From NCBI GenBank assembly GCA_000004985.1, contig GG738849.1: a DNA stretch of 64,000 bases; one strand, given 5' to 3'. The stretch comes from Naegleria gruberi (taxonomy: Eukaryota). Each line of letters opens with the position of its first letter. Positions within the stretch are counted from its first letter, which is position 1. Both the position numbers and the translations under genes were made by a program. Shown piece after piece: positions 61,680 to 63,093 of the stretch. Below the pieces are notes generated by a model. That model ran no database searches, was not told the DNA's origin, and was given only the letters and a program-made list of their open reading frames with translations.

Positions 61680-63093
61680 ATGATGATTAACAATACTATT
61701 AACGCTCAAGACAATATTGCTCTCTACAAGTACAAGCAACAATTAGAACAATTGGAAAATTGCAAAGGCTTGGGAACATCTGTTATTACCTTGTTGGTTA
61801 GTTGCAAGACTTCATTGACTCAAGTTATTTCTCAAATGGATCAACGTTTGACAAAGTCTAACAATATCAAGTCGTGTATTTAACAGGAATAGTGTTCAAG
61901 TGGCTACAAGGACTGTTATATCCAGATTAAAGCTATTGAAACAGACACCTGCTAATGGTTTGGCAATTTTCTGTGGAATGGTAAATCCAGATTCTGCTCC
62001 AGGTTTATTCTCTGATGATGAATCTAGTTTGGTGGTTGATAACGGTTTAGAAGGCTCTGACAATAATGCACATGTTGATTTGAAGAAATTGTGTGTTATG
62101 ATTGAACCACCAAATCCAATTGACAGCAATCTTTACTATTGTGACGATTGTTTCCATGTTGAACAGTTGAGAAGTCAATTGCAAGAATTTAATTCTGGAA
62201 AAACTTATGGTGTAATTGTTATTACAGGTACAGGTACTTTGTATGGTACTTTACGTGGAAATACCAGTAGTATTTTACGTGAATTTTCTCATGAACTTCC
62301 AAAGAAACATTCTAAGGGAGGTCAATCTCGTGAAAGATTTGCTAGAAATAGAGAAATTGCCAAGAATGAATATCTCAAGATTATTGCAGAGAAGGCAAAT
62401 GGTTTATTCGTTTCTTCAGCTCTCAATGCTCCAACTGTTGATGCTATTATTCTTGCTGGATGTGCAGAATTGAAGAATGAATTACTTTCTCTCAAATCTG
62501 ATTGTTTAGACTATAGATTGAGAACTAGAATTTTAACTGTTGTTGATGTTGCATATGGTGGCAGACCTGGATTTTATCAAGCTATTCAACTTGCACAAAA
62601 TGAAATTCAAGATTCTAGATTCTTGGAAGAGAGTGAAACCATTCAAGAGCTATTGAATTTACTTTCCAAAGGATCCAAGGCTGTTGTTGGTTTGGAAGAA
62701 ACCATGTTTGCTATTGCAAGTGGTTGGGCTAGTAAGGTAATCTTGTGCGAAAAGCAATCATCCTTGAAGAGAGTTACACTCTCTGATGATTCTGTTCACT
62801 ATTTGGAAGAAGACAAGATTAAATTCTTATTGGAAAGAAATTCTGTCAAGGTTGCTAGAATTGAAAACCTTATTGATTATTTAGTTGACAATTACAAGAA
62901 AATTGGTATTGACAAGTTGTCTCTTGTTACTGATTGTACTAATGAGGGAAATATGTTTTTGAAGGGCTTCTCAGGTATTGGTGCTATTCTAAAGTTTGAT
63001 GTAAATGTTGCCTCTCTTCTCTCTGAGGAGAAGGATAACTTTGAAGCTTTTGAAGAGGAAGCCTACAATGAAGACTTGTCCGAATTCTACTAA
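61680..63093 (+). CDS. ERF1: Divergent eukaryotic release factor 1 (eRF1) with NIKS, YxCxxxF and GGQ motifs intact. The coding sequence is split by an in-frame TAA (61881..61883) with continuation in the +1 frame (ORFs 61680..61883 and 61852..63093).
   Basis: Frame 0 reads ...GLGTSVITLLVSCKTSLTQVISQMDQRLTKSNNIKSCI*. The +1 frame reads NRNSVQVATRTVISRLKLLKQTPANGLAIFCGMVN...YYCDDCFH...GVIVITGTGTLYGTLRGNTSSILREFSHELPKKHSKGGQSRERFARNRE...AILAGCAELKNEL...VVDVAYGGRPGFYQAIQL..., and is colinear with human eRF1 [38 protein letters not shown]...YLCDNKFH...[17 protein letters not shown]. The stop is TAA at 63091-63093. Confidence 0.8.

Follow-up and report, generated by a model that had tools for sequence, protein, structure and literature searches.

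A second eRF1-family release factor of heterolobosean amoebae is probably made by a +1 frameshift at a conserved internal stop codon

Near the 3' end of a 64,000-nucleotide stretch of Naegleria gruberi contig GG738849.1 (NCBI GenBank assembly GCA_000004985.1; this whole stretch is called the window here), the + strand carries a gene of the eRF1 release-factor family at positions 61680-63093. A first-pass annotation, made from the sequence alone, described it as a single reading frame for an unusually divergent eRF1 with an insertion in the N domain. We found the peptides it quoted at their coordinates on the + strand. However, the coding sequence is not one reading frame, since it runs into an in-frame stop after 67 codons and the remainder lies in the +1 frame. 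This locus raises two questions: how a complete protein could be made from it, and what kind of release factor that protein would be.

To answer the first question, we read the two frames directly. ORF1 (61680-61880, +; frame 0, codons 1-67) begins with ATG and ends at an in-frame TAA (61881-61883), and its translation closes with ...TKSNNIKSCI. It spans the first half of the N domain, with the GTS loop and the NIKS motif (AAT ATC AAG TCG, 61863-61874, +; seen by direct reading and in the motif table), and is colinear with residues 7-66 of human eRF1 in the alignment. ORF2 (61882-63093, +) is read in the +1 frame, and this frame does not open until 61852. It supplies codons 68-470 and the terminal TAA (63091-63093), and encodes the remainder of the N domain, the M domain and the C domain, with 397 codons of protein downstream of the ORF1 stop. 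When T61881 is skipped (ATT [T] AAC), the frames fuse into a 470-residue protein whose junction, NIKSCINRNSV, aligns without gaps to human eRF1. In N. gruberi the internal TAA occupies codon 68 of 470, and an early stop with the remainder of the release factor in the +1 frame was found in 12 lineages. We consider it likely that a second release factor is made here by a programmed +1 frameshift at the internal stop, and that its synthesis senses the efficiency of termination. We infer the occurrence of the frameshift, its exact slip position and the feedback from the conservation of the split frames and of the site. The first-pass annotation had suspected a link with frameshifting and termination. 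This suspicion stands in so far as the gene needs a conserved +1 frameshift at its own internal TAA, which is a more specific form than the one proposed.

The in-frame TAA and the +1 continuation occur at the same codon in 13 contigs whose DNA we read directly. They represent 12 lineages: N. gruberi, a close relative, N. lovaniensis, N. fowleri, an environmental Naegleria-like lineage, Willaertia magna, Acrasis kona and five more. In every one of them, ORF1 ends with (N/R)IKS-[C/S]-[I/L/V]-TAA and the +1 frame goes on with N-R-x-S-V. The frameshift cassette of N. gruberi (ATC AAG TCG TGT ATT TAA C, 61866-61884, +) sits in the same alignment column in the 12 lineages, with the consensus ATC AAG TCG WGY NTT TAA C. 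Four lineages (N. gruberi, Acrasis and two others) have A as the first base of NTT; N. fowleri, N. lovaniensis, Willaertia and a fourth lineage have C, and another four have G. An NUU-stop-C heptamer, written ATT, CTT or GTT followed by TAA C, is present in 12/12 lineages; only its first base varies and U_UU_U is kept. All three codons specify a hydrophobic residue, as at human V66. In one lineage (L035), a 42-nt GT...AG intron (nt 337-378) begins 5 nt past the TAA and interrupts the Arg codon following AAC, and the site is intact.

A gene that is very divergent and interrupted by a stop, and that public annotations either truncate or bridge with an invented intron at this site, could be an assembly error or the product of a disabling mutation. 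A decaying eRF1 pseudogene would also account for the divergence. We regard this as almost certainly wrong, because the same stop at the same codon recurs in contigs that were assembled independently. Furthermore, both sides of the stop show dN/dS of 0.11-0.26 (unsaturated pairs only), with 0.14-0.26 for ORF1, where comparable codons sufficed, and 0.12-0.23 for ORF2. No orthologue contains any other stop or indel, the GGQ, IKS and YxCxxxF motifs are invariant, and the structural model folds confidently. Sequencing error and pseudogene were ruled out on conservation and dN/dS. Purifying selection on both frames, the conserved site, its frozen synonymous positions and the lack of other stops or indels point to selected recoding and not to damage.

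The deposited models of this paralogue that we inspected are all wrong (N. gruberi P0001, N. lovaniensis, N. fowleri, W. magna P0006/P0007 and A. kona P0199). The public N. gruberi model is an N-truncated, 371-aa "eukaryotic peptide chain release factor subunit 1" that is 100% identical to the C-terminal 371 residues of the gene. Such truncated models, also found for Acrasis and many environmental sequences, begin at the first Met past the site, and the Met positions differ. In N. lovaniensis the gene (L001 2667-4131) was split in two, of 80 aa and 376 aa. In W. magna and N. fowleri (XP_044561269.1, P0317) an invented intron over the site deletes NIKS. The reading given here corrects public models that truncate the gene, split it or remove its NIKS region as an intron. 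The stretch running from the shift site to the first downstream Met is conserved in sequence but contains no conserved Met, so ORF2 could not be initiated independently.

Codon choice within the cassette is also unusual. The Ser codon is TCG in 11 of the 12 lineages. None of the other Ser codons of the N. gruberi gene is TCG (0/41), and its share is 0-7% in most other genes of the group. The Asn codon that follows the stop is AAC in every lineage (12/12), although in most of them AAC supplies just 15-38% of the Asn codons (naive P ~7e-6), and the TTT that creates the TAA is likewise kept in 12/12 (naive P ~0.003). These P values are only indicative because the lineages were treated as independent. 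The Ile codon is ATC in 10/12 lineages. Outside the cassette, synonymous sites are saturated between the deeper lineages (dS >1). The changes that do occur before the site are synonymous in frame 0 (AAG to AAA in L004, TCG to TCT in Willaertia), and the Arg codon after it varies synonymously in the +1 frame (AGG, CGT, AGA, CGG). Judged from these codons, the synonymous constraint over ~19 nt, including the weak +4 C, indicates selection on properties of the site.

We also considered whether the mRNA could lose the frame change, through splicing of a very small intron, through RNA editing or through slippage during transcription, which would make a ribosomal frameshift unnecessary. Small introns exist in Naegleria, for example the GTAAGT...GCAG intron of importin-9, and the L035 intron lies only 5 nt past the TAA. 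Nevertheless, this explanation is very unlikely. The only GT...AG spans of 3n+1 length across the stop are 13 and 19 nt long and would delete 4-6 residues of a strongly conserved helix, and they are not conserved in orthologues that have different downstream codons, such as CCG TCA. An intron across the stop was rejected on these grounds. The T run, at 3 nt, is too short for transcriptional slippage. In addition, three contigs of ~1.4-1.6 kb with transcript-like boundaries, whose RNA origin could not be verified, retain the TAA.

To place the gene among release factors, we used a profile search. Its results included another N. gruberi protein, P0208, of 438 aa, which is encoded on a different, 713-kb scaffold and has fully canonical motifs. 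P0208 shares 61% identity with human eRF1 but only 37% with the window gene, not the above 55% that an ordinary eRF1 would share with the eRF1 of related taxa. The divergence is confined to the paralogue and does not extend to the Naegleria termination machinery at large. In trees rooted on aRF1, built by neighbour-joining only with Kimura distances, the window gene fell in a divergent clade with bootstrap 95 (87 when viral sequences were added). P0208 lies inside the canonical eukaryotic eRF1 clade (bootstrap 93), and the paralogue clade falls outside it. The basal place of the paralogue clade may be a long-branch artefact, and trees of this kind cannot date the duplication. The divergent clade has N. 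lovaniensis, N. fowleri, Willaertia magna and Acrasis kona as its named members, all of them Heterolobosea, and the lowest protein identity of an orthologue to the N. gruberi paralogue is ~37%. An exhaustive profile search of 1.84 billion representative proteins with a hidden Markov model yielded only ~8 clusters (50% identity) of the paralogue type, and a metagenome scan for further relatives returned only eRF1s of <=38% identity and no new clade members. Taken together, this suggests that the window gene is most likely a fast-evolving second class-I release factor, an eRF1 paralogue common to heterolobosean amoebae, and the first-pass suggestion of a second, specialised eRF1 paralog is borne out to this extent. 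Divergent second eRF1s have been reported in Tetrahymena (eRF1-2) (PMC2613156) and in Acanthamoeba castellanii (PMC3521657). They resemble the heterolobosean protein as long-branch paralogues beside a canonical eRF1, and the A. castellanii paralogue is reported to lack an internal stop codon (PMC3521657).

Overall, the fused protein shares 36% identity with human eRF1 (37% in the N domain, 46% in the M domain and 27% in the C domain), and canonical eRF1s in the same alignment score 49-78% against the human protein, which agrees with the unusual divergence first noted. The motifs described at the outset, NIKS, GTS, YYCDDCF and GGQ, are all present. The YxCxxxF motif lies at 62134-62154 (+; motif table), and the catalytic GGQ (GGA GGT CAA, 62317-62325, +), within KKHSKGGQSRERFAR, is invariant across the paralogue clade. 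Of the features that recognise the stop codon, NIKS, GTS and the Y/C/F residues are kept, TAS is replaced by KSN, and Arg stands where human eRF1 has E55. RIKS takes the place of NIKS in most other members of the clade. All three Pfam domains scored above their gathering cut-offs: eRF1_1 with 32.4 bits (cut-off 23.8), eRF1_2 with 106.6 (27.1) and eRF1_3 with 45.8 (25.8; E=9e-12). The C domain (residues 315-441, 62623-63003, +), which had been called barely recognisable, is clearly identified, although it is the most divergent part of the protein. Of features that bear on eRF3 binding, only a GILRY-like GAILKF and, after the domain, an acidic tail (...EDLSEFY) were seen to be conserved.

The best PDB sequence matches of the fused protein are eRF1 (E ~5e-72). 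Its AlphaFold2 model has pLDDT 87 and pTM 0.76, with pLDDT >=90 over the junction. The model superposes on ribosome-bound eRF1 (5lzt_ii) with TM 0.79 and on the human N domain (2llx) with TM 0.84-0.85, and the top Foldseek matches are all eRF1 (E ~1e-40). The Pfam domains, the GGQ motif and the predicted three-domain eRF1 fold place the protein in the eRF1/aRF1 class-I release factor superfamily, and the fused product would be expected to have release-factor activity. Compared with canonical eRF1 (human ETF1, P0208), the paralogue shares the fold, GGQ, (N/R)IKS, YxCxxxF, the GTS loop, the GILRY-like motif and the acidic tail. It differs in being 36-37% identical, in the Arg at E55, in a hairpin of 10-61 instead of 15 residues, in its separate clade and in its internal stop and frameshift.

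The N-domain insertion, first put at about 25 aa, is confirmed. The interval between the equivalents of human G98 and F114 holds 41 residues, 26 more than the canonical 15. This interval is 15 residues in all canonical eRF1s sampled but one (14), and in two of three archaeal aRF1s (13 in the third). It ranges over 10-61 residues in the other members of the paralogue clade. The insertion of ~26 residues lies in the loop of the N-domain beta-hairpin (residues 100-140, 61978-62100, +), with its disordered part at ~61984-62085. In the AlphaFold2 model, residues 102-134 have no secondary structure and pLDDT is ~50 over 111-130, and strands 94-101 and 135-141 flank them. We examined whether the insertion might be an unrecognised intron, since a 105-nt in-frame GTAAAT...AAG span occurs at 61981-62085. 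Every orthologue keeps an in-frame loop of varied length and sequence, and removal of the span would leave a hairpin 9 residues shorter than the canonical one. On this comparison, the hairpin insert is read as coding and not as an intron.

How, then, would the two frames be joined? The ribosome would translate codons 1-67 and pause at the putative shift site (61878-61883, +) with AUU (CUU or GUU in relatives) in the P site, while the A site holds UAA-C, the weakest termination context. The peptidyl-tRNA could then re-pair on the overlapping UUU, T61881 would be skipped, and decoding would resume at AAC (61882) in the +1 frame. The shifted product would be the 470-residue protein with the complete N-M-C eRF1 fold, whereas termination at UAA would release a 67-residue fragment. 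Release factor and frameshift would compete for one A-site stop codon, so the output of the paralogue should vary inversely with the efficiency of UAA termination, and nonsense-mediated decay (NMD) of the non-shifted mRNA could amplify the response. A slip that preserves the pairs at positions 2 and 3 predicts a P-site codon whose first base is unconstrained, and A, C and G are all seen there. The arrangement may have arisen when a single T was inserted into an ancestral GTT AAC (V66-N67), giving GTT TAA C, the form that survives in four lineages. The stop would always be TAA because only TAA leaves AAC (Asn67) in the +1 frame. The terminal stop of the gene is also TAA in all 12 paralogue loci (context TAA-A in N. 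gruberi). Among the 28 window ORFs of >=200 codons, most ends are TAA-A (10) or TAA-T (5), and just one is TAA-C.

This scheme closely resembles bacterial RF2 (prfB), in which, at CUU UGA C, the peptidyl-tRNA slips from CUU to UUU while an A-site stop weakened by the 3' C awaits the release factor (PMC5009743). Shared features are a short ORF1 followed by a long +1 ORF2, the NUU-stop-C site, re-pairing on UUU, the weak +4 C and conserved nucleotides directly 5' (PMC5009743, PMC3521657). In the heterolobosean gene the 5' element is AUCAAGUCG, conserved 3 nt 5' of the P-site codon, and the Shine-Dalgarno stimulator of bacterial prfB sits in the same place. However, the RF2 protein family is unrelated to archaeo-eukaryotic eRF1, the stop is UGA in RF2 and UAA here, and a Shine-Dalgarno mechanism is impossible on 80S ribosomes. 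The heterolobosean gene also differs in being a paralogue beside an unframeshifted canonical eRF1, so any feedback may be cross-regulation and not pure autoregulation. The conserved 5' motif can be written AAGUCG(U) (AAGTCGT, window 61869-61875). It is the same as, and not the complement of, AAGUCGUAACAAGG, a small-subunit rRNA sequence that is conserved universally and forms the top of helix 44 (the 1492R primer site); for a 6-7-mer, the resemblance to rRNA could be chance.

Giant viruses offer a second comparison. The release factors of Mimivirus (R726) and Megavirus (mg280) use UGA readthrough followed by a +1 shift at CUU UAG C or CUU UAA C, and carry an N-terminal insertion (Jeudy et al. 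2012, PMC3521657). Like the heterolobosean protein, these mimivirid factors belong to the eRF1 family, are very divergent, have an N-domain insertion and shift by +1 at NUU-stop-C. Among viral genes in IMG/VR, we located the sites TGT CTT TAA C (Megavirus) and TGT CTT TAG C and TAT ATT TAG C (two other mimivirid-type genes), at nt 2229-2250 of L055, 2220-2241 of L057 and 1970-1991 of L056. The viral protein of L057 has GGS in place of GGQ. The E-site codon is NRU in the viral genes (UGU, UAU), as in the heterolobosean genes (UGU, UGC, AGU), and that of E. coli prfB is UAU. In contrast to the heterolobosean site, all three viral sites map to the hairpin of the N domain, ~45 codons 3' of NIKS and at a non-homologous position. 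The virus also needs upstream UGA readthrough, whereas heterolobosean ORF1 has no readthrough stop, and the heterolobosean gene is cellular. The viral proteins group in a clade to themselves (bootstrap 100), and their union with the heterolobosean paralogues has a bootstrap of 6. Because the viral site is non-homologous and the viral clade does not join the paralogues, the heterolobosean case looks like an independent cellular invention of the NUU-stop-C device. Horizontal transfer to or from giant viruses was rejected, since most giant-virus eRF1s in IMG/VR are canonical and unframeshifted, and the mimivirid factors carry the motif at another codon and do not cluster with the paralogues.

Among eukaryotes, plant eRF1-1 is autoregulated through readthrough and NMD (Nyiko et al. 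2017, PMC5397192), which likewise ties expression of a release-factor gene to termination efficiency at its own stop codon. In the plant, functional protein results from normal termination and readthrough shields the mRNA from NMD; the heterolobosean protein would need rare recoding, as RF2 does.

Several observations weigh against a regulated slip at NUU-UAA. Read in the +1 frame, the nucleotides at 61869-61884 give S-R-V-F-N-R, which resembles the canonical SRVNR and leaves the slip site ambiguous. W and N, which vary more than any other nucleotides of the cassette, fall on third positions of that frame, and the conserved rare UCG could be a pause site. We found no conserved downstream RNA structure and no match to an Rfam element. 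A canonical eRF1 has been shown to accompany the paralogue only in N. gruberi and in one 90%-identical environmental sequence. Furthermore, feedback depends on cellular release factors competing at the internal UAA, and the frameshift might only set a constitutively low expression.

The first of these points lead to a scheme in which the recoding is real and the shift takes place upstream, at AAG UCG. Here the ribosome would pause on the rare Ser codon UCG and the next tRNA would read CGU in the +1 frame, as in Ty3, giving ...NIK-R-V-F-NR; the TAA three codons on would merely terminate ribosomes that had not shifted. UCG is kept in 11/12 lineages and almost unused elsewhere in the paralogue genes, and the +1 frame reads SRVFNR in 8/12 lineages, with R in 11/12 (L001, L002, L003 and L033 were noted). 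However, the scheme leaves unexplained why TTT, and with it the frame-0 TAA, and AAC, and with it the +4 C, stay constant in 12/12 lineages against codon usage, and it removes the invariant Ser of (N/R)IKS. The AAG to AAA and TCG to TCT changes are synonymous solely in frame 0, and NUU UAR C is already an established shift site in RF2 and the mimivirid release factor (PMC3521657, PMC5009743). In Willaertia, the +1 frame opens just 14 nt before the end of the TAA. Because a +1-frame stop directly precedes AGT there, the shift is confined to AAG TCT AGT CTT TAA. We consider a shift at AAG UCG improbable, and a slip at NUU-UAA with the product NIKSCINR is favoured by these sequence comparisons. 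The SRVFNR reading itself could be a coincidence, a dual constraint or a sign of an earlier shift.

The frameshift might also occur without regulating anything. A fixed T insertion could be tolerated through background slippage at GUU UAA C, which would keep a potentially toxic second release factor low and constant. A single T inserted into GTT AAC does give GTT TAA C, the form present in four lineages, and no stimulatory RNA structure was found. On the other side, the site has been kept across Naegleriidae, Acrasidae and deeper lineages, with ~19 nt of synonymous constraint that includes the weak +4 C. Moreover, stop-dependent shifts respond to release-factor activity by mass action, as established for RF2 (PMC5009743). 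This explanation is rather unlikely, but it is the strongest of the rivals to a shift that senses termination.

Extending the sensing frameshift to the whole cell, we tentatively suggest that Heterolobosea have a two-release-factor system, a proposal about which our belief falls slightly short of our doubt. Canonical eRF1 would carry out bulk termination. The second factor, with altered decoding features (E55 to R, N61 to R in most lineages, and the variable hairpin), would be made through the RF2-like +1 shift only when UAA termination fails, in a circuit whose origin would be independent of those in bacteria and giant viruses. If so, the second factor could have a distinct stop-codon or context specificity.

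Frameshift-controlled release-factor synthesis is a textbook case of translational feedback. A 2016 review of frameshifting lists, among release factors, only bacterial RF2 and a giant virus (PMC5009743), and release-factor frameshifting has been portrayed as a bacterial-type peculiarity confined to viruses (PMC3521657; PMC5009743). In a full-text search of the literature on Naegleria or Heterolobosea with eRF1 or frameshifting, we found no description of this gene, and an RF2-like programmed +1 site in a cellular eukaryote is unreported in the literature searched. If our reading is right, this would be the third, independent invention of the NUU-stop-C solution and a termination-homeostasis circuit in a cellular eukaryote. 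It would also provide an 80S system for stop-codon-dependent +1 frameshifting with a conserved 5' nucleotide element, and add an unrecognised second release factor to Naegleria, including the pathogen N. fowleri.

Elsewhere in the window, we scanned the junctions between ORF ends and +1 ORFs and found no second convincing case, and genome-wide frameshifting of the Euplotes type was rejected. The overlapping ORFs at 42009-45522 (-), of 757 aa (importin-9 HEAT repeats) and 440 aa, had been a candidate frameshift and are explained by a normal GTAAGT...TTGCAG intron at ~43373-43326. No functional linkage to neighbouring genes was seen; the flanking genes (BART/ARL2BP, a MIP channel, GH47, importin-9 and others) are unrelated. 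An 803-aa GTPase of the eEF1A family with a long N-terminal extension is encoded at 5225-7636 (-), and among PDB entries it matches human HBS1L best (468.6 bits; eRF3a scores 331). By sequence this is classed as an ordinary HBS1 orthologue, ~54 kb from the paralogue, with linkage between the two not evidenced. The small gene directly downstream (63301-63695, +) encodes an ARL2-binding BART-domain protein, whose first exon apparently ends at GTAAAT (~63366) before an intron of ~38 nt.

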